DNA of 59,460 bases from Bacilli bacterium (GTDB taxonomy: Bacteria; Bacillota_I; Bacilli_A; RFN20; UBA1709). The stretch spans positions 1 through 59,460 of the forward strand of contig JAZRXY010000005.1 of assembly GCA_045600465.1 (NCBI GenBank). Reading direction: 5' to 3'. Positions 12,081 through 30,691 of this stretch are shown here, in pieces. Within the stretch, counting starts at the first letter, position 1; every line of letters begins with the position of its first letter. The notes under the pieces are model-generated. The model worked only from the letters and a program-made list of their open reading frames with translations. It was not told the origin of the DNA and made no database searches. A program made the translations under genes and the position numbers.

Positions 12081-13652
12081 ATGATACTAGCAGAATTTAG
12101 TAGTATCGCGCTTCCTCTTATCGGTGGTATAGTAGGCGGAATTGTTGTTGGGATAATAATTATGAACATCATCCCACAAAGTAGCGTCAAAAAATCAAAA
12201 GATCTTGCTGATAAACTTGCTAAAGAAGCAGAAGCTAAAGCAGATCAAATTATTCGTAATGCTCAATTAGATGCAAAAACTGCAGCATACGAACAAAAAA
12301 TTGAAGCTGAAAAAGAATTAAAAGAAAGTAGACAAGAAATATCTAATTTAGAGAACAAGCTTTTACAACGCGAACAAAATATTGATCGCCGTGATTTGGC
12401 TTTGCAATCTAAGGAAGAAGCTCTTGAATCAAAACAAACACAATTAAACCAAAAACTACAAGACCTCGATAAAAAAGAAGCCGATTTAGACTCACGTATT
12501 GAGTCAATCATTGCCGAACTTGAGAAAGTTGCATCAATGTCTTCTCAAGAAGCAAAAGACGAGTTATTTAAACGTGTTGAAGAAAAGTCAGCATTAGAAT
12601 TTGCTGCTTACATCAAAAACGCAGAAGAAGAAGCTAAAGCAACAGTTAACGAGAAAGCTCGTGAACTTTTAGGCTTTGCAGTTCAAAAATTTGCCCAAGA
12701 TGTAAGTAACGAAAGAACAGTTTCTGTTGTCGCATTACCTAGTGATGATCTAAAAGGAAGAATCATTGGTCGTGAAGGAAGAAATATTAGAACAATTGAA
12801 CAACTTACAGGTGTTGATTTAATTATTGATGATACACCAGAAGTTATCACTGTTTCCTGTTTTGATCCTATTAGACGTGAAACAGCAAGACTATCTCTTG
12901 AATATCTAATCAAAGATGGACGTATTCAACCTGGAAGGATTGAAGAAGTTGTCGAAAAAGCAAAAGCTGAAATTCAAGAAACAATTAATAAGGCTGGAGA
13001 AGAAGCTTTATTTAAAGTTGGCATTTCTAAAATCAACCACGAACTTGTTAACCTACTTGGTAGATTAAGATATCGTACAAGTTATGGACAAAACGTTTTA
13101 CAACACTCAATGGAGGTTGCTTTCCTAGCAGGAACAATGGCTTCAGAATTAGGCCTTGACCAACACCTTGCAAGACGTGCTGGTTTATTACATGACTTAG
13201 GAAAAGCTCTTGACTTTGAAATTGAAGGTAGCCACGTTGAAATTGGTGTAAGATATGCTAAAAAATATGGCGAAAATAAAGTGGTATTAAATGCTATTGA
13301 ATCTCACCATGGTGATGTGCCTCCTACAAGTGTATATGCTCAACTAGTTGCAGCAGCTGATGCATTAAGTGCTGCTCGCCCTGGTGCAAGAAGCGAATCA
13401 CTAGAAAAATATATTCAAAGAATTGAAGAACTAGAAACTATCGCTAAAAGCTTCGACGGTGTTGAAAGTGCATTTGCAATTCAAGCAGGCCGTGAAGTTA
13501 GAGTTATGGTAGTTCCTGATAAAGTTGATGATCTAAGCGCATTTAAACTTGCTAGGGAAATCAGAGAAAGGATTGAAAAAGATTTAACATATCCTGGACA
13601 AATAAAAGTTACAGTTATTCGTGAAACTAGAGCAAACGAAATTGCTAAATAG
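12081..13652 (+). CDS. rny: Ribonuclease Y
   Basis: N-terminal TM, coiled coil, KH ([13 protein letters not shown]), HD domain (LLHDLGK). Confidence 0.98.
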
Positions 13653-22663: not shown

Positions 22664-23359
22664 CTACAATGGTTTATTTTTTATCTTAGAATAACTTCTA
22701 GGATATTTCGTTTCATGTTGTTTAATTTTTTGTAGGCACATGTTAAAGTGCGTAACATTTGCTTTAGTAAGTTTGACTTCTTGCACTCTAATTATCTTAT
22801 AACCTAGTGTGTCTAGCGCATGAGCAGCTTCAGTGATTTCTCTTTGATAATTTGTGCCCTTCATAATAACTAGATATCCTTTTGGTTTAATTAGGTTGCA
22901 AGCTAACTCTAATAAAATGTTTAATGATGCAACCCCTCTAGCAACACAAATATCAAATTTTTCACCTTTGTATTCTTCAGCTCTAGCAACAATTGTCTTA
23001 ACATCCTTTAATCCCAACTTTTTAGCAAGGTTATCTATAAACATCATTCGCTTACCAGTTGAATCTAGCGCTGTAGCTTTAATTGAATCATCAATTATTT
23101 TTAAAGGGATTAATGGAAATCCTGCTCCACTACCTAAATCAACAACGCTCTTATTAGTAAAATCTTCTGCGTTAATTAGTGAGATGCAATCAAAGAAATG
23201 TTTTTCATATACTTCTTCTTCATCAACTATACTTGTTAAATTGTATTTCTCGTTTTCACTAACTAGATATTCATAATATGTCTTGAATTTATCTAGTTGA
23301 TCTTCATTAAGGGTAATACCTAAACTTGCTACATCATTTATAAAATCATTAATGTTCAT
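22664..23359 (-). CDS. rsmG: 16S rRNA m7G527 methyltransferase
   Basis: NLTSI, HFFDC, DLGSGAGFP, ARAEE. Confidence 0.96.
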   Translation of the reverse strand: MNINDFINDVASLGITLNEDQLDKFKTYYEYLVSENEKYNLTSIVDEEEVYEKHFFDCISLINAEDFTNKSVVDLGSGAGFPLIPLKIIDDSIKATALDSTGKRMMFIDNLAKKLGLKDVKTIVARAEEYKGEKFDICVARGVASLNILLELACNLIKPKGYLVIMKGTNYQREITEAAHALDTLGYKIIRVQEVKLTKANVTHFNMCLQKIKQHETKYPRSYSKIKNKPL

Positions 23360-25214
23360 TTTTCTTCCCCCTTAATCTTAGATTCATTATTAGAATGCCA
23401 ATATCACTAGGATTTACTCCTGATATTCTTGAAGCTTGTCCTATTGTTCTAGGCTTTACTAGCATCAATTTTTGTTTAGCTTCTATTGCAATATTATCCA
23501 TATGTTCATAATCCATGTCTTCAGGGATAACCTGTTCTTCAAGATGCTTTCTATTTTCGGCCTCTTCTTTTTGCTTGCTAATATAGCCTTCGTATTTTAT
23601 GTTTATTTCAACATCTTTTAAAACTTCTTCACTATAAATATTCCTTAAATATTTAGTAATATCTTCGATTGAAATAAGAGGACGTTTTAAAAGCAAGTAT
23701 CCATTCACACCTTTAGTTAGTGCTTCATCTCCTCTAGAAATAAGTACACTATTTATTTCGTGTTTTACTCCAAATTTAGTATTTTTTAATTCTTCTTTTA
23801 ACCTTTCAATATCTTGTTGTTTATTTAAAAATTGATTATAAGTCTCTTTGCTTACTAAACCGATTTCATAGCCGTATTTTCTAAGTCTAGCATCAGCATT
23901 ATCGTGTCTTAGTAGTAATCGATATTCAGCACGGGATGTAAGAAGTCTATAAGGTTCCTTTGTCCCTTTAGTTACTAAATCATCAATCATAACACCGATA
24001 TACGCTTCATCTCTTCTTAAGACTAAAGGCTCTTTCCCTTTTAATTTATTAATGACATTGATTCCTGCCATTAGTCCTTGCCCTGCCGCTTCTTCATAAC
24101 CACTTGTCCCATTTATTTGACCTGCGCAGAACAAGTTTTCTACAGGTTTAGTTTCTAGACTTGGTTTTAATTGCAATGGATCTATTGCATCATATTCAAT
24201 AGCGTAAGCATATTTTTTTACTTTACAATTTTCAAAACCTGGAAGAGTTCTAATCATTTTTTCTTGAATCTCTTCAGGCATTGATGTTGAAAATCCTTGT
24301 AAATAAATTGTATCCAAACTTGCTGACTCTGGTTCAACAAACAATTGATGTTGATCCTTGTCGGCAAATTTAACAATCTTATCTTCGATTGAAGGACAAT
24401 ATCTAGGCCCTACTCCTTCAACCATTCCTCCATACATTGCTGATTCTTTTAAGTTATCTTGAATAACTTTTTTAGTTTCTAGCGTTGTATGGATTAAATA
24501 ACAAACTCTTTGTTCTTCTAAAGGTATAAATCTAGTCGTTGAATAAGAGAAAGCTAAATTACCTTTAGTTCCTGGTTGAATACTCATCTTAGAATAATCA
24601 ACACTATCTTGATAAATTCTAGGAGGTGTTCCAGTTTTTAATCTTTGGATATTAAAGCCGTTTGCTTTTAAAGATTCACTTATCCCAATCGCACTTCTTT
24701 GTCCGTCTGGACCCTCTAATTTAAAGGTGTGACCTCTTAATATTTTAGAGTTAGGATATGTTCCTGTTGTTAAAATTACGGCATCTGCTTCAAGCTTTCT
24801 ATTATCCTCTAAAATAACACCTTTGCAAACTTTGTTTTCCACAATTAGTGAAGTAGCCATGCTTTCAATTATTTCTATATTCTTTTCACTTTGTAAAACA
24901 TTTTGCATATATTTTGCATATTCTAATTTATCGGATTGAGCTCTTAAGCATTGAACTCCTGGGCCTTTACCAGTATTCAACATTTTTAATTGGAAATAAG
25001 TAGCATCGCTTGCTTTTGCCATTTCTCCGCCAAGGGCATCTATCTCTCTTACAACCACTCCTTTAGCAGGTCCCCCAATAGATGGATTACATGGCATACT
25101 TCCAATATTAGTGATATCTAGGGTAATTAAAGTCGCAGTAAAACCAGCTCTAGCAACCGCTAGGCTAGCTTCTATTCCAGCATGACCGCCACCAACAATA
25201 ATTACTCTTCTCAT
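23349..25214 (-). CDS. mnmG: tRNA uridine modification enzyme MnmG (GidA)
   Basis: GGGHAG, MPCNPSIGGPAKG, GPRYCPSIEDK, GQINGTSGYEEAA. Confidence 0.98.
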   Translation of the reverse strand: MRRVIIVGGGHAGIEASLAVARAGFTATLITLDITNIGSMPCNPSIGGPAKGVVVREIDALGGEMAKASDATYFQLKMLNTGKGPGVQCLRAQSDKLEYAKYMQNVLQSEKNIEIIESMATSLIVENKVCKGVILEDNRKLEADAVILTTGTYPNSKILRGHTFKLEGPDGQRSAIGISESLKANGFNIQRLKTGTPPRIYQDSVDYSKMSIQPGTKGNLAFSYSTTRFIPLEEQRVCYLIHTTLETKKVIQDNLKESAMYGGMVEGVGPRYCPSIEDKIVKFADKDQHQLFVEPESASLDTIYLQGFSTSMPEEIQEKMIRTLPGFENCKVKKYAYAIEYDAIDPLQLKPSLETKPVENLFCAGQINGTSGYEEAAGQGLMAGINVINKLKGKEPLVLRRDEAYIGVMIDDLVTKGTKEPYRLLTSRAEYRLLLRHDNADARLRKYGYEIGLVSKETYNQFLNKQQDIERLKEELKNTKFGVKHEINSVLISRGDEALTKGVNGYLLLKRPLISIEDITKYLRNIYSEEVLKDVEINIKYEGYISKQKEEAENRKHLEEQVIPEDMDYEHMDNIAIEAKQKLMLVKPRTIGQASRISGVNPSDIGILIMNLRLRGKKNEH

Positions 25215-25215
25215 T

Positions 25216-26802
25216 TTATCCTTTAAAACTATTTGCTAAATATTCTGTTTCCTTTGCAACATCAAGTCTTGGGAAAATGTTTTCTCCTTTTGTAACAATC
25301 TTATTATCCATACCATGGAAATCTAAGATTGTATCGTATTCAATTTCTTCTAATCCTAGTTGAGTTAAAACTTTTGGATATGTATTAACTAACATTGGTT
25401 TTAACATAACGCTTGCTTCTTTTAAGACTAACATTAAGTGAGTCATTACTGATCCTAATTCATCTTTTTTTGCTTCGTCTTTAGCAAGTTCCCAAGGTTT
25501 TGTATCATCAATATATTTGTTAGCTTTGCTTAATAAGTCAAATACTTCTCTAAAGCCTTGATCAACATAGAATTTATCCATTTTGTCTTCATAATGCTTC
25601 TTGGCATTTTCTAAAGCTATTTCTAAATCTTTGTCAAAGTTTCCGATAGCGCCTTTATATTCTGGAATGTTGCCTCCAAAGTATTTAGTTACCATTGAAA
25701 TACTTCTAGATAATAAGTTTCCGTAGTTATTAACTAAATCATTATTAACGTTTTCAACAAATAATTCTGGAGTGAATGTTCCATCTTGTCCAAATGGGAC
25801 ACATGTTGTCATGTAATAACGAAGTGTATCTAGACCATATTTTTCAATAATTGGTTCTGGATAAATTACGTTCCCTTTAGATTTTGACATCTTTCCGCCA
25901 TTCATTAGTATCCAACCATGAGCAAAAATCTTAGTTGGTTGGCTTAGACCTAATGCTTCTAGCATGATTGGCCAATAGATCATATGGAATCTAATAATTT
26001 CTTTTCCTACTACGTGTAGGACTTCATGATCTTCATCATTGTGCCAATATTTTTTAAATAACTCATCGTTATCTTGTTTGTAACCTAAAGCTGTGATGTA
26101 ATTTGATAAAGCATCAATCCAAACATAAATGACGTGTTTTGGATCTTCTAAGATTGGAACTCCCCAATCGAAAGTGGTTCTAGAAACACTTAGATCACCT
26201 AGTCCTGGTTTAATAAAGTTATTAACCATTTCATTTTTTCTAGAAATAGGTTCAATAAAACTTGGATGTTCATCATAATATTTTGTTAACCAATCAACAT
26301 ATTTTGACATCTTAAAGAAATATGATTCTGATGTTGTCTTATGAACTTCCCTACCACAATCAGGGCAACGATGATCTTCCCCAACTTGTGATTCTGTCCA
26401 ATAAGATTCACATGGTGTGCAATACCACCCTTCATATGATCCTTTATAAACATCCTCTTTTTTATAATAGTCGCTAAAGATTTGTTGAACTGTTTTAACG
26501 TGGTAGTCATCTGTGGTTCTAATAAACTTATCGTATTGAATGTCTAGTCTCTTCCACAAATCTTTAATACCATCAACAAGTTCATCAACAAATTGTTGTG
26601 GTGTTTTTCCTGCTTCTTTTGCTTTTTCTTGAACTTTTTCGCCATGTTCATCAGTACCAGTTAAAAAGAAGACATCGTATCCTCTTAGTTTTTTGTATCT
26701 TGCAATTGCGTCGCAAATTGTTGTAGTGTAAGTGTGCCCGATGTGCAAGTTACCTGATGCATAATAAATTGGTGTTGTAATGTAAAATGTTTTCTTTGCC
26801 AT
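25216..26802 (-). CDS. metG: Methionine--tRNA ligase, short form without C-terminal tRNA-binding domain
   Basis: LHIGH, GTDEHG, CTPC/CPDC knuckle, YVWIDAL, KMSKS. Confidence 0.97.
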   Translation of the reverse strand: MAKKTFYITTPIYYASGNLHIGHTYTTTICDAIARYKKLRGYDVFFLTGTDEHGEKVQEKAKEAGKTPQQFVDELVDGIKDLWKRLDIQYDKFIRTTDDYHVKTVQQIFSDYYKKEDVYKGSYEGWYCTPCESYWTESQVGEDHRCPDCGREVHKTTSESYFFKMSKYVDWLTKYYDEHPSFIEPISRKNEMVNNFIKPGLGDLSVSRTTFDWGVPILEDPKHVIYVWIDALSNYITALGYKQDNDELFKKYWHNDEDHEVLHVVGKEIIRFHMIYWPIMLEALGLSQPTKIFAHGWILMNGGKMSKSKGNVIYPEPIIEKYGLDTLRYYMTTCVPFGQDGTFTPELFVENVNNDLVNNYGNLLSRSISMVTKYFGGNIPEYKGAIGNFDKDLEIALENAKKHYEDKMDKFYVDQGFREVFDLLSKANKYIDDTKPWELAKDEAKKDELGSVMTHLMLVLKEASVMLKPMLVNTYPKVLTQLGLEEIEYDTILDFHGMDNKIVTKGENIFPRLDVAKETEYLANSFKG

Positions 26803-26824
26803 AATTAATCACGCTCCGACAATT

Positions 26825-26848
26825 TATTTTATCACAATTGATAAAATA
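26825..26848. promoter_or_regulatory. Perfect 10-4-10 inverted repeat upstream of metG RBS
   Basis: TATTTTATCA-CAAT-TGATAAAATA. Confidence 0.35.
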
Positions 26849-27006
26849 ATAATAGTACACGCATATTAGATATAAATACATATTTATACACCTTTTTATT
26901 CCATTCCTCATACTTTTCCCTCTTTTTGTCCCACTTTGTATCACTTTTTACCGTTTTATCAATGTTTTTTTAATATTTTATCAAAACGTAAATTTTGTTT
27001 TTTTAT

Positions 27007-27035
27007 TTTACCAAACCATAAATTTGTGTTATAAT
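27007..27035 (+). promoter_or_regulatory. SigA-type promoter of the XRE gene
   Basis: TTTACC-17 nt-TATAAT with extended -10 TGnTATAAT (27027-27035). Confidence 0.6.
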
Positions 27036-27051
27036 ATGTTTGGGTGATATT

Positions 27052-27798
27052 ATGTACGATAAAAAAGTATGTATCAATAACATAAGATTTCTAGCTAAAA
27101 ATCAAAACATTAAACTTGGTTCTTTGGAAAAATCAATAGGTGTTAGTCCTGGCTATTTTTCAAAACTTGAAAAAGAAGGAAATTTAGCAAATCCCACAAT
27201 TGACCTTATTGTTAAAATATCAGAAATTTTTAAAGTTTCTGTGAATTCTATTATAGGGCCTTCTCTTACCGACCTAAATGCAAAAGAGTTAATTGTTCTT
27301 AAATTTCTATCTGCTTTAATCAAGGATTCGGAAGAATCCAAATTTCTGTGGATAAAAGATATAGAACCACACTTATCTGGTTCCAATTTTTTTGATGTCT
27401 TGGATGATTCTCCATACGCAGGGATCCTTAATAAAACAAGCATATATACAGGGGATTGTTGGATAAAAAAGTCCTCATGCATTTCCAAATTTAGAAAGGG
27501 AGAAACATCTATTGTCACCGGGGCTTGTTGCCGTTGCAATTTTGATGCAAATAAAACAATTCTTATTATTCCACTCTCAACTTATGAAGAGAATACTTTT
27601 TCATTTACTCATCCACGAATTGAAATTTATTTGCTTAATCCTTTTTGTTCGCCACTATGTGCTACAGGAGAAGAAACCTCTCCTGCAATAGTAGAATTAA
27701 TTGAAGTATTGTATAAAAAAGCGTGCGAATCTACAAAAAATATTATGCTAGATTCAAAATTAGAAAAAGATATTGTTTCTTATCTTAATAATAAATGA
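27052..27798 (+). CDS. XRE/Cro-family HTH regulator with large uncharacterised C-terminal domain
   Basis: N-terminal IRFLAKNQNIKLGSLEKSIGVSPGYFSKLE...IVKISEIFKVSVNSII matches HTH_3 pattern; ATG 27052 behind GGGTGA. Confidence 0.8.
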   Translation: MYDKKVCINNIRFLAKNQNIKLGSLEKSIGVSPGYFSKLEKEGNLANPTIDLIVKISEIFKVSVNSIIGPSLTDLNAKELIVLKFLSALIKDSEESKFLWIKDIEPHLSGSNFFDVLDDSPYAGILNKTSIYTGDCWIKKSSCISKFRKGETSIVTGACCRCNFDANKTILIIPLSTYEENTFSFTHPRIEIYLLNPFCSPLCATGEETSPAIVELIEVLYKKACESTKNIMLDSKLEKDIVSYLNNK

Positions 27799-27824
27799 TT
27801 ATATCATTTGTTATATATAACAAA
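27793..27824. promoter_or_regulatory. Tandem palindromes, candidate operators
   Basis: AAATGAT-TAT-ATCATTT (27793-27809) overlapping perfect 18-bp TTTGTTATATATAACAAA (27807-27824), abutting an RBS. Confidence 0.5.
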
Positions 27825-27837
27825 AGGAGGTGATTTC

Positions 27838-27978
27838 ATGAAAAGAGAAAAAAATCTTGCTTATTGTTGGCCCAACAAGCAAGATACACTTACAGATTTT
27901 GCATCTGTTAAACGTAACTTCATTATGCATCATTCTGTAAAGTTTGACAAGTCTTACTTATTATTTAAAGGAGAGTGA
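27838..27978 (+). CDS. Small 46-aa protein of unknown function (MKREKNLAYCWPNKQDTLTDFASVKRNFIMHHSVKFDKSYLLFKGE)
   Basis: Near-perfect RBS AAAGGAGGTGA just upstream of ATG; stop lies 4 nt before the next start; below the ORF-track length cutoff. Confidence 0.7.
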   Translation: MKREKNLAYCWPNKQDTLTDFASVKRNFIMHHSVKFDKSYLLFKGE

Positions 27979-27982
27979 TGCA

Positions 27983-28642
27983 ATGAGTAAACTTAATGCA
28001 TCTAGAAACGGATGCAAAGACGTTTTTAAAGCGTTTCTCGTTAAAAACGCTTATTATGATGGAAAGCTTGAGATTCCTGTATGTGCGTCTTGTAATTATA
28101 TTCCAAACAAATTAATCTCTTTTTCAAAGTGTCTTTCCACCACCGATTATGACCAATGGGTTCATTTCTATGAGGACGATTGTCAATTTGAAAGGGTTTG
28201 GAACAACCCGGAAAGATATTTACCGATTCTCAAACGATTTAAAGGAGTTATTGCTCCTGATTTCAGTGTTTATAGAGATTTTCCTTTAGTACTGCAAGCC
28301 TGGAATTGTTACAGAAATAGAGCGATTGCTTTTTGGCTTCAAGAGCATGGTATAAATGTAATTGTTAACGTGAGATGGGCCGACGAAAGAAGCTATGATT
28401 TTTGTTTCAGTGGTATCTCAGTTGGCTCAACAATAGCAGTCGGATCATACGGAAATATCAAAGTAAAAGATGACAGATTTTATTTTGAGCAAGGATTCAA
28501 GAGGCTCGTAGATATTACTCGTCCAAAGACTATTATATCTTATGGGCAATTGCCATTAAATTTGTTAGAGTTCTGCAAAGAAAGAGACATCAATGTTGTT
28601 TGTTTTAAACCGGAATTTGTTGTTTCAAGGGAGAATTTATAA
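27983..28642 (+). CDS. DUF4417-like domain protein
   Basis: VHFYEDDCQFERVWNNP, GVIAPDFSVY, WNCYRNRA, G+NVI.NVRW, STIAVGSYG pattern recognised as DUF4417; start reassigned to ATG 27983 behind AAGGAG. Confidence 0.8.
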   Translation: MSKLNASRNGCKDVFKAFLVKNAYYDGKLEIPVCASCNYIPNKLISFSKCLSTTDYDQWVHFYEDDCQFERVWNNPERYLPILKRFKGVIAPDFSVYRDFPLVLQAWNCYRNRAIAFWLQEHGINVIVNVRWADERSYDFCFSGISVGSTIAVGSYGNIKVKDDRFYFEQGFKRLVDITRPKTIISYGQLPLNLLEFCKERDINVVCFKPEFVVSRENL

Positions 28643-29046
28643 TGGGCGGCGGTTATTTTGGTGGTTTCGGGCACACAAAAGGAAGTAATTTATCGATTAA
28701 GCTTCCTTCTAAAACTAGTTATGATTCTTCTCCGTTGGAAAAAAGCGAATTGCCAACCTCCTCATCACAATTAAACCATATCTTTAGAAACAAGGAGGGT
28801 CATCTTCCAAAAACGGCGGAAAATATGGAAAAAATCTTGAAACTTGCTAATGACCCTTCAGCAATAAGAAGAAAAGATGCTAAAGGAAATGTGTGGGTGA
28901 CAAAAGAAGAAAATGGGCAACAATTATGGGCGCGAATAAGAAATGGCATTATAAACAATGCCGGTATCAATAAAAAGCCTAGATCTTGGGACTCATCAAC
29001 AGGTTTAAATAAAAATCCTTTTAAAAATAAAAAGGGAGGTAAATAG
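28642..29046 (+). CDS. Putative toxin: Gly-rich N-terminal leader, Ser-rich linker, basic nuclease-like C-terminal domain
   Basis: MGGGYFGGFGHTKGS leader; HIFRNKEGHL...GQQLWARIRNGIINNAGIN..PRSW pattern recalls polymorphic-toxin C-termini; TAATG coupling to upstream gene; function inferred. Confidence 0.55.
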   Translation: MGGGYFGGFGHTKGSNLSIKLPSKTSYDSSPLEKSELPTSSSQLNHIFRNKEGHLPKTAENMEKILKLANDPSAIRRKDAKGNVWVTKEENGQQLWARIRNGIINNAGINKKPRSWDSSTGLNKNPFKNKKGGK

Positions 29047-29047
29047 T

Positions 29048-29368
29048 ATGTTTAGTAAAAAAGACTTATTTATAATGTTGTTTTATTGTTTTGATTCTTT
29101 GAGTGAAAGTCACAACGATGAGGAATTAAATGAATTTCTAAGTGATGCAAACCCTTTTGTTTTCACCGATCGATGTTCAGCCGACCCTTCAATTTATGAA
29201 GAATTTGACAAAGCTATTACCCAATTGTCTTTTATAGATTTTGGATATTCTAATGTAAAAAGTTTTCTTGAAAAGCACCACCCTAATTTAGTAAAAATCT
29301 TTTTAGAAACAAACGAGGATAACTGGCAAGCAGCCTTTAAAGAATACTTAAACTCAAAAGATAATTAA
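29048..29368 (+). CDS. Putative immunity protein (acidic, 106 aa)
   Basis: Starts 1 nt after the putative toxin stop, strong RBS; FLSDANPF..SADP motif; acidic composition; function inferred. Confidence 0.5.
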   Translation: MFSKKDLFIMLFYCFDSLSESHNDEELNEFLSDANPFVFTDRCSADPSIYEEFDKAITQLSFIDFGYSNVKSFLEKHHPNLVKIFLETNEDNWQAAFKEYLNSKDN

Positions 29369-29380
29369 TTGGTAAAAACT

Positions 29381-29436
29381 AAAAAGCGAGGTTGCTTGAA
29401 ATTGTTTTGTTATCAACAGTTTCTCCTCGCTTTTTT
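29381..29436. terminator. Composite bidirectional terminator between cassette and aminopeptidase gene
   Basis: AAAAAGCGAGG ... CCTCGCTTTTT outer stem enclosing GAAATTGTT/AACAGTTTC inner stem. Confidence 0.7.
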
Positions 29437-29446
29437 GTCTTTTTAT

Positions 29447-30691
29447 TTAAAATACAAAGTTTCCGTTTTTGAATACTGGTACTTCTTTACCATCAAATGT
29501 AATTCCAGTGATTTCTAAGTCTTTTGTCCCAATCATGAAATCAACATGTGTATTTGATGCATTTAGTTGCGCTTTTGCTTGTTCTTCAGGGCTCATATCT
29601 GTTCCCTTTTTTAGACAAGTTGGATATGCTCTACCTAGTGCTAAGTGACATGAAGCATTTTCATCAAATAGTGTCTCGTAGAACAAGATTCCACTATTTC
29701 TAATTGGTGAATCATATGGTACTAAAGCAACTTCACCTAAGTAGTGGCTTCCTTCATCAGTTTCGATAACATTTTTTAGTGTATCTAATTCTTTTTCAGC
29801 ACCATAGTTAACTACTCTGCCATTCTTAAATTCAATCCAGAAACCTTCAACAAGTTTCCCTGATGTGAATAATGGCATTGATGCGTAAACTTTTCCATTT
29901 GCGCCACTTTTAGCAGGAGCTGTAAAGACTTCTTCGGTTGGCATATTAGGATTATAGTAAATGCCTTTTGTTGTCTCTTCTCCACCTGCTGCCCAAATAT
30001 GATTAACGATTAAATCAACCGTAAAATCGGTACCTAGAGAGTTTTTATAGTGTAATGATTTTAAATTAAGTTCATTTAATTTATCTCTCCGTTTTGCCAT
30101 GTTAGCATTATGTTCATCCCAAGCTTTTAATGGATCACCATTAGGATCAATTCTTGTTGTTTTTAAGATAGCATCAAATAGTTTTTCATAAGCTTCGTCC
30201 TCGTTTAAGTCTGGGAAAACCTTTTTAGCCCAATCTTTGTTTGGATATGATGCTACTAACCATTGACCTTCATTAGCCATAGAATAGTTCATGATTTTCA
30301 TGAATTTTGGATTTTTTGTCATAGCAATTTGTTGTATTTGCATTTTGTTAGCATCAACTTCTTTCATTGCCTCTGGATGAGGTGAAAGAATTGCCATTTG
30401 TGCTCTCCCGTCTTCAATACTTGCTAGGTTCTTATCATAAACCCATTCTTTAATTGTTGCTAATTGTTCATCGCTTTGATAGATATAGTCATACTTTGTT
30501 GCATGTGGATCACTATAATTTACTTCAACATAGCTTGCTCCATTTTCATAAGCAACCTTTACTATTTCTCTAACAAGGTCAACACATTCAATGTCCGCTT
30601 TAATAACTAGAGGTTGTCCTTTTTGAAGGTTAACGCCTCTTTTAACAAATGCTAATGCCATCTTTTTAATGGCTAATTCTTTATTAATCAT
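29447..30691 (-). CDS. Aminopeptidase, M29 (AmpS/PepS) family
   Basis: NMPTEEVFTAP, LGEVALV, FYETLFDENASCHLALG, HVDFMIG. Confidence 0.95.
   Translation of the reverse strand: MINKELAIKKMALAFVKRGVNLQKGQPLVIKADIECVDLVREIVKVAYENGASYVEVNYSDPHATKYDYIYQSDEQLATIKEWVYDKNLASIEDGRAQMAILSPHPEAMKEVDANKMQIQQIAMTKNPKFMKIMNYSMANEGQWLVASYPNKDWAKKVFPDLNEDEAYEKLFDAILKTTRIDPNGDPLKAWDEHNANMAKRRDKLNELNLKSLHYKNSLGTDFTVDLIVNHIWAAGGEETTKGIYYNPNMPTEEVFTAPAKSGANGKVYASMPLFTSGKLVEGFWIEFKNGRVVNYGAEKELDTLKNVIETDEGSHYLGEVALVPYDSPIRNSGILFYETLFDENASCHLALGRAYPTCLKKGTDMSPEEQAKAQLNASNTHVDFMIGTKDLEITGITFDGKEVPVFKNGNFVF

Follow-up and report, generated by a model that had tools for sequence, protein, structure and literature searches.

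What are five plus-strand genes doing in the midst of a minus-strand run of housekeeping genes in a small bacterial genome? The genes in question lie in a stretch of 59,460 nucleotides (positions 1 to 59,460 of contig JAZRXY010000005.1, assembly GCA_045600465.1; hereafter the window) from a Bacilli bacterium of the GTDB lineage Bacillota_I; Bacilli_A; RFN20; UBA1709. Inspection of the open reading frames (ORFs) showed five plus-strand ORFs interrupting the minus-strand genes; all positions below are those of the window unless another contig or locus is named. Comparison with related loci makes it quite probable that these genes make up one intact cassette of a polymorphic toxin-immunity class that is linked to DUF4417; antagonism between bacteria is the favoured role. 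The cassette and the parts of its products are as follows.

27040–29436, plus strand: the whole cassette
27052–27798, plus strand: XRE-family helix-turn-helix (HTH) regulator, 248 aa, with TTG at 27040 as an alternative start
27838–27978, plus strand: 46-aa ORF with a strong ribosome-binding site (RBS), unconserved and probably not a component of the system
27983–28642, plus strand: DUF4417 protein, 219 aa, the constant partner of the cassette (Pfam PF14386)
28642–29046, plus strand: ORF4, a 134-aa basic protein and putative toxin (leader, linker and C-terminal domain)
28642–28683, plus strand: toxin leader MGGGYFGGFGHTKG, residues 1–14; its ATG overlaps the DUF4417 stop codon (TAATG)
28684–28746, plus strand: Ser/Pro/Lys-rich low-complexity linker, residues 15–35, predicted to be disordered
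28747–29046, plus strand: C-terminal putative toxin domain, residues ~36–125, and a basic tail (profile search and AlphaFold 2 (AF2) model)
29048–29368, plus strand: ORF5, a 106-aa acidic protein, the predicted cognate immunity protein (locus comparison)

For the XRE gene, the ATG at 27052 is a likelier start than 27040.

For comparative analysis, 16 proteins of the DUF4417 subfamily were aligned, and 80 loci were fetched from one-per-species genomes, mostly of gut and rumen Clostridia; with the window and locus L001 they made up a set of 82 loci. In 79 of them the DUF4417 gene is followed by an ORF starting with M-G-[AGT]-G-[FYI]-[HYF]-G-G-F-G-x-T-x-G, and in nearly all of these 79 the two genes share a one-base start/stop overlap (TAATG or TGATG). 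All four glycine codons are freely used at each Gly position of the leader, which indicates that it is conserved as a protein. The original prediction had supposed that DUF4417 genes are often followed by short ORFs starting with MGG or MGA, and this held also for distant relatives: the next ORF starts with MGSGISG.Y.GT, MGGRGA or MGSRG after nine of nine distant DUF4417 genes of the same order, and with MGGRGS, MGRGSS, MGRGKS or MGSGRS in about 20 of 38 IMG/VR contigs, where the DUF4417 protein is often longer (350–475 aa). A few viral DUF4417 proteins are 46–48% identical to that of the window and are followed by leaders of the GGFG.T.GS type. Since the closest viral DUF4417 proteins have leaders of this type and the distant ones have other classes, the class of leader tracks the DUF4417 subfamily. 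The two parts also occur in one polypeptide: an in-frame fusion (P0033) comprises DUF4417 at residues 20–193 and a toxin-type domain at residues 229–321, and further fusions of this kind are P0011, P0052 and P0066. The junction reads '...EKGMG...' in P0033, P0011 and P0066, but not in P0052.

Phage genes show some variations. In Streptococcus phage IPP52 (L086, 3120–3866), the gene after a ParB-DUF4417 fusion encodes a protein with a presequence of ~65 residues ending in ...NFTL, followed by GGGRG, and with a JAB-like HNHP...S..D motif near the C-terminus. Judging from this presequence, a leader-type tag may in phages be exposed by cleavage. Six IMG/VR loci (L152, L154, L156, L157, L159 and L161) have DUF4417 followed by a conserved ORF of 134–145 aa containing ...EKHFFRI.EYRQKH... 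and lacking an MG leader. Mycobacteriophage L5 gp2 was considered as a leader protein and rejected, since it lacks an MG leader and begins 200 nt past gp1.

Downstream of the leader the proteins diverge. The 74 complete leader proteins (113–188 aa) have C-termini falling into 11 unrelated clusters, and the third genes likewise form 11 clusters that correspond nearly one-to-one to the toxin clusters; the exceptions are one toxin cluster distributed over two third-gene clusters and two toxin clusters joined in one single-linkage third-gene cluster. Both the expectation of a Gly-rich leader on an exchangeable toxic domain and the co-variation of the third gene, suggested as a check, were thereby borne out. 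A minority of the C-termini are recognisable, namely DUF6883 (with DUF4926-like partners), an SprT/HExxH-like metallopeptidase, a JAB-like domain and a C80-like peptidase. The toxin of the window (type T6) is accompanied by a protein of the ORF5 family (I4) in five of five loci, and I4 is paired with no other toxin type. A word search for ORF5 homologues returned only ORF5 itself, and the homologues were recovered instead through locus context: among 35 metagenome loci encoding an ORF5-type protein, 31 have a HIF..GH domain directly upstream, mostly with the leader and DUF4417. The 106-aa protein carries the motif LSxANPFxFxDxxSADP. L001 is a 3.2-kb contig found via a toxin homologue; it encodes in order an XRE regulator, an ImmA-like protein, DUF4417, toxin and immunity protein, the last three being 51%, ~49% and 30% (E 4e-18) identical to those of the window.

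The mode of exchange could be read from pairs of loci in which the DNA of the XRE, ImmA and DUF4417 genes is 93–97% identical and different types of toxin are encoded. In these pairs homology stops 29–47 nt into the toxin ORF, where the leader ends, and is found again past the immunity gene. These breakpoints show, at the level of DNA sequence, that the putative toxin domain is exchanged together with the predicted immunity gene in a single block, through recombination at the leader end, with DUF4417 and the leader kept constant. Remnants of cassettes were also observed. L014 (2818–3648) has an orphan I6 immunity gene, matching that of L029, behind a T2-I2 pair and left there by displacement; L031 has a fragment of an I3 gene behind a T1 cassette; and in L124 (3627–4336) a frameshifted leader-toxin gene and an immunity gene lie beside cobalt-transporter genes, with no DUF4417. 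CdiA and Rhs loci are known for the same displacement and orphan-immunity behaviour.

The C-terminal domain of the 134-aa protein belongs to a large family with few close members. Only five close relatives were found among 5.8 billion sequences, and a profile built from them retrieved 1458 representatives at E<=1e-3 and 973 at E<=1e-10. The match spans profile positions ~28–122 and lies at the extreme C-terminus of proteins of up to 1229 aa. Pfam domains detected in 104 longer relatives were RHS_repeat (10), PT-HINT (5), DUF4417 (3), PT-VENN (2; the CdiA-type pre-toxin domain), and PAAR, DUF4280 and Phage_Mu_F (1 each), while the window's C-terminal domain itself corresponded to no Pfam model in any of the 104. 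Its position at the tip of RHS, PT-HINT, PT-VENN, PAAR and MuF proteins and the absence of a Pfam model identify it as a genuine, unmodelled polymorphic-toxin tip. Residues H46, H54, N61, G92, W96 and G108 (window numbering) are invariant, and I47, F48, D79, G82, W85, Q94, N110, P113 and T120 are nearly so; the length and sequence of the linker vary among homologs. The AF2 model has a predicted local distance difference test (pLDDT) score of 85–95 for residues 30–120 and below 50 for residues 1–29, which are predicted to be disordered, and its core consists of two helices packed against a 4-strand sheet. The isoelectric points of the 134-aa and 106-aa proteins are 10.2 and 4.4, respectively. 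The best structural neighbours in Foldseek, all non-significant, were HigB (E 0.19), the colicin E5 CRD (E 0.35), RelE and CdiA-CT; from the model, the domain is probably a metal-independent RNase of the BECR/RelE/colicin-E5 kind.

The constant partner, called only 'DUF4417-like' in the original prediction, proved to be a full member of the family: the 219-aa protein matches PF14386 at profile positions 3–170 of 183 with 209.2 bits (gathering cut-off 28.9; E 4.6e-62), and also phrog_8680 and phrog_940. It is 51–61% identical to the DUF4417 proteins of the 80 genome loci. Its AF2 model is a TIM-barrel-like alpha/beta fold (pLDDT 82, predicted template modelling score 0.80). In 58 diverse DUF4417 domains from cassettes, viral contigs and the phages L5, IPP52 and proPhi6, residues D66, F69, P92, D93, S95, P101, G144 and P181 are invariant, and Y97, D99 and R111 are kept in 93–97%; by their pattern in the alignment these residues look like an active or binding site. 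A search of BFVD with the model returned DUF4417 homologues and faint matches (E 0.05–0.25) to phage proteins resembling queuine tRNA-ribosyltransferase (TGT/DpdA). Two other kinds of match were set aside. Designed 'Pizza' beta-propellers matched residues 116–163 in a phmmer search against PDB (E down to 3e-8), a match that is probably repeat-driven and an artefact, since the predicted fold of DUF4417 is alpha/beta and not a propeller; a weak match to R.HinP1I (E 0.19) and the 'nuclease' labels of phage proteins were not used as evidence of nuclease activity. Hundreds of phage genomes encode DUF4417 (gene 1 of mycobacteriophage L5 is an example), and in phages it is often fused to ParB and located just before the terminase genes (terS). 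In the literature searched, DUF4417/PF14386 appears only as a phage-enriched fusion partner of the ParB-CTPase fold or as a hypothetical phage gene, and never with toxins.

Expression of the cassette appears to be organised by the following signals, given together with the flanking genes.

23349–25214, minus strand: mnmG, left flank
25216–26802, minus strand: metG, left flank
27007–27035, plus strand: sigma-70-type cassette promoter, TTTACC-17-TATAAT with TG, 10/12 matches
27847–27950, minus strand: predicted antisense small-RNA gene, RNA of ~65–70 nt (promoter/terminator scan and covariation)
27950–27945, minus strand: -35 box of the antisense RNA
27927–27922, minus strand: -10 box of the antisense RNA
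~27909–27891, minus strand: hairpin 1 of the antisense RNA
27885–27854, minus strand: terminator stem of the antisense RNA
27853–27847, minus strand: T-run of the antisense RNA
29378–29438, plus strand: Rho-independent terminator closing the operon, stem GCGAGG...CCUCGC followed by U6, -21.4 kcal/mol, z -4.8
29447–30691, minus strand: pepS-like aminopeptidase gene, right flank
beyond the pepS-like gene, minus strand: EF-G-like gene, right flank

A promoter scan found the promoter at 27007–27035 to be the sole strong plus-strand match of the region. Together with the terminator it makes the XRE, DUF4417, putative toxin and immunity genes one promoter-to-terminator unit. The 46-aa ORF lies 4 nt from DUF4417, DUF4417 and the 134-aa ORF overlap in TAATG, the 134-aa and 106-aa ORFs are 1 nt apart, and Shine-Dalgarno sequences precede each start (AAGGAGG, AAGGAGAG, AGGGAG and AGGGAGG); the DUF4417, putative toxin and immunity genes are translationally coupled. 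This spacing and the strong RBSs agree with the first description of the locus, as do the palindromes upstream (26824–26849, a perfect 11-nt inverted repeat, and 27788–27814) and the terminator downstream. The word TTTTA(T/C)C(A/G)AA is present in three or four copies at 26940–27035, in or just upstream of the cassette promoter; these words and the inverted repeat at 26824–26849 are possible XRE operators.

The HTH domain of the regulator (residues 9–70) is of the Cro/C1 type, with matches to Pfam HTH_3 (E 5.7e-5), phrog_8 (E 2.2e-9) and PADLOC HTH_VI (E 2.5e-6). Its 174-aa C-terminal domain had no Pfam match and no relative in the related loci or in its own genome, and the idea that it is a degenerate ImmA was discarded, there being no similarity, no M78 match and no HExxH motif. 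The related loci mostly carry HTH_3 and Peptidase_M78 (ImmA/IrrE) genes upstream of DUF4417, for example L015 and L008. In eight loci (L010, L012, L017, L035, L044, L059, L062 and L073) a gene of ~350–390 aa replaces XRE and ImmA, and the one scanned against Pfam, that of L010, encodes a Fic/DOC and HTH protein.

When the spacers between ImmA and DUF4417 were aligned on the minus strand, a small-RNA unit was found to be conserved in 51 of 66 loci. Its promoter has a TTGACA or TTGAAA -35 box, separated by 17 nt from an extended -10 box (TGnCATAAT or TATAAT); a short hairpin and then a long one follow, the latter with a T-run behind it. The copy in the window folds at -24.7 kcal/mol (z -6.0). 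The unit is missing from the spacer in at least L010, L012 and 11 other aligned loci. In 37 distinct sequences the long (terminator) helix has compensatory changes in 13 of 15 pairs; 91.8% of its cells are paired, against 72% in column shuffles and 33–49% with the partners slid, and none of 500 shuffles reached the observed covariation. G-U pairs far exceed A-C mismatches, which, with the promoter and the T-run, points to the minus strand as that of the RNA. No Rfam family matched 27847–27950, even at E<=1. As the sole good plus-strand promoter lies before the XRE gene, the small RNA would run antisense to the intercistronic part of the transcript between XRE and DUF4417, and it may regulate the operon.

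The genome (35 contigs, 927 kb, 88% complete) carries the cassette in a variable position. Relatives of the same family retain mnmG-metG and pepS as neighbours, and the slot between metG and pepS (window 26803–29446) holds an alpha/beta hydrolase gene in G002, G008 and G011 and a pot-type ABC operon in G001. Because relatives fill this gap differently, the cassette can be regarded as accessory cargo, in keeping with the initial impression of co-oriented non-core genes within a housekeeping run; its GC content is the same as that of the flanks. The same early description had seen no mobility or delivery gene, and indeed no integrase, transposase, LXG, WXG, RHS or MuF domain was found in the five products with Pfam, NCBIfam, PADLOC and PHROGs. 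In these four collections the 46-, 134- and 106-aa products gave nothing significant. DUF4417 was found in 68 of 201 genomes of the same order, in 22 of 52 genera and in up to five copies per 1–2 Mb genome, against 0 of 14 control genomes. The six-part layout is repeated across dozens of genera, and cassettes are present in the cultured strains Pseudobutyrivibrio xylanivorans DSM 14809 and Allobaculum stercoricanis DSM 13633, as well as in cultured Hominifimenecus microfluidus and Mogibacterium kristiansenii. A second, degenerate copy is located on another contig of the same genome (C8, ~13006–13646; L003, 1444–2084), where an 87-aa N-terminal stump of DUF4417 precedes a 126-aa acidic ORF with a weak likeness to I6 immunity proteins (E 0.004). 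This copy directly follows an AAA_21 ATPase and RloB gene pair, a pair type found in defence islands.

How might such a cassette serve antagonism between bacteria? The putative toxin has three parts, namely the Gly-rich leader of 14 residues, the linker predicted to be disordered and the exchangeable C-terminal domain. The last of these would act as a two-histidine, metal-independent RNase with a RelE/colicin-E5-like (BECR) fold and would be neutralised by tight binding of the acidic immunity protein. After removal of Met, the leader would begin with a free N-terminal glycine. DUF4417, through D66, D93, S95, Y97, D99 and R111, could recognise the leader and process, modify or dock it, whereby the toxin would be licensed for release or delivery. 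Until a signal of the stress or phage type arrives, the operon would be kept off by the XRE regulator, with the ImmA/IrrE protease as its helper in most relatives, and by the antisense RNA.

Several results weigh against this proposal. No signal peptide or trafficking domain was detected in the cassette products by the Pfam and NCBIfam scans, and in 74 loci no gene of any kind, whether for an exporter, a holin or an ABC protein, is conserved 3' of the immunity gene. WXG100 (PF06013) had no match in the whole genome, while control genomes gave matches, and no HK97-type capsid gene was found in the genome at its 88% completeness; a type VII secretion system (T7SS) and an own prophage are consequently not evident as delivery routes. 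The assignment of the RNase fold rests on Foldseek matches with E values of 0.19–1 and template modelling (TM) scores of 0.3–0.4, and sequence searches of PDB with the toxin gave nothing for the single sequence and only RHS cores for a 104-sequence profile. For the DUF4417 model, Foldseek against PDB returned weak hits to transaldolase, MTHFR and EAL (E >= 0.011), none of them significant; with no significant match of the fold to a solved structure, any activity ascribed to DUF4417 is a guess. Finally, the window departs from its relatives in two respects: position 6 of its leader is F where the consensus has H, and its regulator has no ImmA/IrrE partner.

As to delivery, we tentatively suggest, as a possibility rather than an expectation, that DUF4417 and the Met-Gly-x-Gly leader constitute a phage-derived cargo-tagging system, a new mode of trafficking for polymorphic toxins that would route the next-encoded protein out of the cell or into phage particles. 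DUF4417 would then be an enzyme or adaptor acting on the exposed N-terminal glycine leader of that protein. The particles would be the phage's own where the genes reside in phages and those of a visiting or helper phage for stand-alone cassettes; the part of the XRE/ImmA switch and the antisense RNA would be to make toxin production coincide with lysis.

The strongest competing explanation is that the cassette works inside the producing cell, as an abortive-infection system or a three-component toxin-antitoxin (TA) defence in which XRE (with or without ImmA) or DUF4417 senses phage or DNA damage and the freed toxin halts growth of the producer, with no export. We consider this unlikely. It would accommodate the failure to find an export signal or exporter in the cassette and a T7SS marker or HK97-type capsid gene in the genome, and DUF4417 is a phage family. 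The XRE and M78 peptidase pairs seen in related loci point the same way; such pairs are classic induction switches of phages and integrative and conjugative elements (ICEs) and predicted partners in three-component TA systems. So does the degenerate C8 copy of DUF4417, adjoining an AAA_21 and RloB pair typical of defence islands. On the other hand, exported toxins (RHS, CdiA-type, PAAR and MuF) share the same toxin-domain families, and immunity genes are retained as orphans when a cassette is displaced, which fits protection from the toxins of neighbours and not self-killing; for these two reasons an intracellular role was ranked below antagonism. Moreover, the immunity gene shares the transcript of the cassette and its translational coupling, nothing hints at a labile antitoxin, and the three core proteins are not recognised by the PADLOC models.

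A second disagreement concerns the parts of the cassette. The original list comprised an XRE regulator, a small ORF, DUF4417, a toxin and an immunity gene; four of these stood, and the small ORF, with no counterpart in the 80 loci, was dropped. In favour of the 46-aa ORF as a genuine fifth part, be it a chaperone, a small co-regulator or a leader peptide, one could cite its RBS, which is the best in the cassette (AAGGAGG, 6 nt ahead of the ATG), and its distance of 4 nt from the DUF4417 start. We rate this as improbable and reject the ORF as a gene because it is not conserved: no homologous ORF was present at the same position in the 80 related loci, most of which have no ORF there at all. The ORF has no family matches in Pfam, NCBIfam, PADLOC or PHROGs, and its DNA carries the conserved minus-strand promoter, hairpin and terminator unit with its covariation. 

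Least probable is a selfish addiction module, maintained solely because cells that lose it die, or a decaying phage fragment from the DUF4417 region by the packaging genes that no longer has a function. In its favour, the normal place of DUF4417 in phages is immediately ahead of the terminase genes, the cassette sits in a variable slot and lacks an integrase, and degenerate copies exist (the truncated DUF4417 on C8 and the frameshifted toxin without DUF4417 in L124). Against it, all four genes of the window are intact, purifying selection acts on the protein sequence of the leader, and the six-part layout spans dozens of genera, with modules actively swapped. In addition, 68 of 201 genomes of a small-genome order have DUF4417, often in several copies, and a plain addiction module needs neither DUF4417 nor a conserved leader.

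If the assignment to a toxin-immunity cassette is true, it provides the first functional context for DUF4417 and adds to the polymorphic toxins of Gram-positive gut and rumen bacteria a class in which a 14-residue leader replaces the trafficking domain and for which no secretion system is known, which poses the question of delivery. It also defines an unmodelled toxin-domain family with ~1,500 representative sequences, together with an immunity family, and adds a layer of antisense-RNA control. The occurrence of cassettes in cultured strains makes these questions directly testable. As for novelty, the original view of an undescribed system agrees with our searches: the DUF4417, putative toxin and immunity proteins were not recognised by PADLOC-DB 2.0, in which the regulator had generic HTH matches only, and no published description of a DUF4417-leader toxin-immunity cassette was found in the literature searched, nor anything relevant that links polymorphic toxins to ImmA.

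Polymorphic toxin systems in general, reportedly set out by Zhang, de Souza, Anantharaman, Iyer and Aravind in 2012, share with the cassette a constant N-terminus, variable C-terminal domains and a co-varying immunity gene directly downstream, as well as toxin domains common to several delivery types and displaced modules that leave orphan immunity genes. Unlike them, the cassette has a constant part of only ~14 residues with no recognisable trafficking domain or signal and no linked secretion system; its constant 'domain' is the separate, translationally coupled DUF4417 protein, and an XRE/ImmA switch and antisense RNA would gate the operon. For the T7SS class with LXG/WXG toxins, no LXG or WXG100 domain was found in ORF4 with Pfam.

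MuF polymorphic toxins, said to have been described by Jamet and co-workers in 2017, resemble the cassette in having a phage-derived constant partner and swappable toxin domains with immunity genes. They belong to temperate phages (PMC12226406). There is also a direct link, since one relative of the window toxin domain is part of a MuF protein, and phage DUF4417 genes lie in the neighbourhood of packaging genes. However, MuF toxins are fusions to a head-morphogenesis domain in prophages, whereas the cassettes are free-standing and mostly encode the partner as a protein of its own; no cassette protein matched Phage_Mu_F (PF04233) in Pfam.

S8-PTS are three-component systems of Gram-positive bacteria in which an accessory enzyme acts on the constant part of the toxin; their toxins, many of them BECR RNases, have a signal peptide and a BetaH domain, the latter cleaved by a secreted subtilase (Li, Tan and Zhang 2022, PMC9424270; Mwangi and co-workers 2026, PMC13556192). 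The constant accessory protein, the polymorphic toxin with a constant N-terminus and the immunity protein are features in common. In contrast to S8-PTS, the accessory protein of the cassette is DUF4417, and Pfam scans found no S8 peptidase, BetaH domain or signal peptide in the cassette.

The small basic alpha+beta domain (two helices and a 4-strand sheet) with two invariant His residues and an acidic partner downstream is reminiscent of the RelE, HigB and colicin E5 (BECR) toxins, but it matched no Pfam or PDB family in sequence and its structural matches were below significance. Xre and COG2856 modules are reportedly induction switches of ICEs and phages (Bose and co-workers, 2008) and predicted three-component TA systems (Makarova and co-workers, 2009). 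Most related loci start in this way, with HTH_3 and Peptidase_M78 genes directly upstream of the toxin operon. Unlike in these modules, XRE stands alone in the window, with a unique C-terminal domain, and the toxin and immunity part is swappable, not a fixed TA pair. Each of the closest systems (MuF, S8-PTS and Xre-COG2856) has at least one defining feature that is absent here, and the cassette combines a phage-type DUF4417 partner, a short glycine-rich leader and an exchangeable toxin-immunity block.

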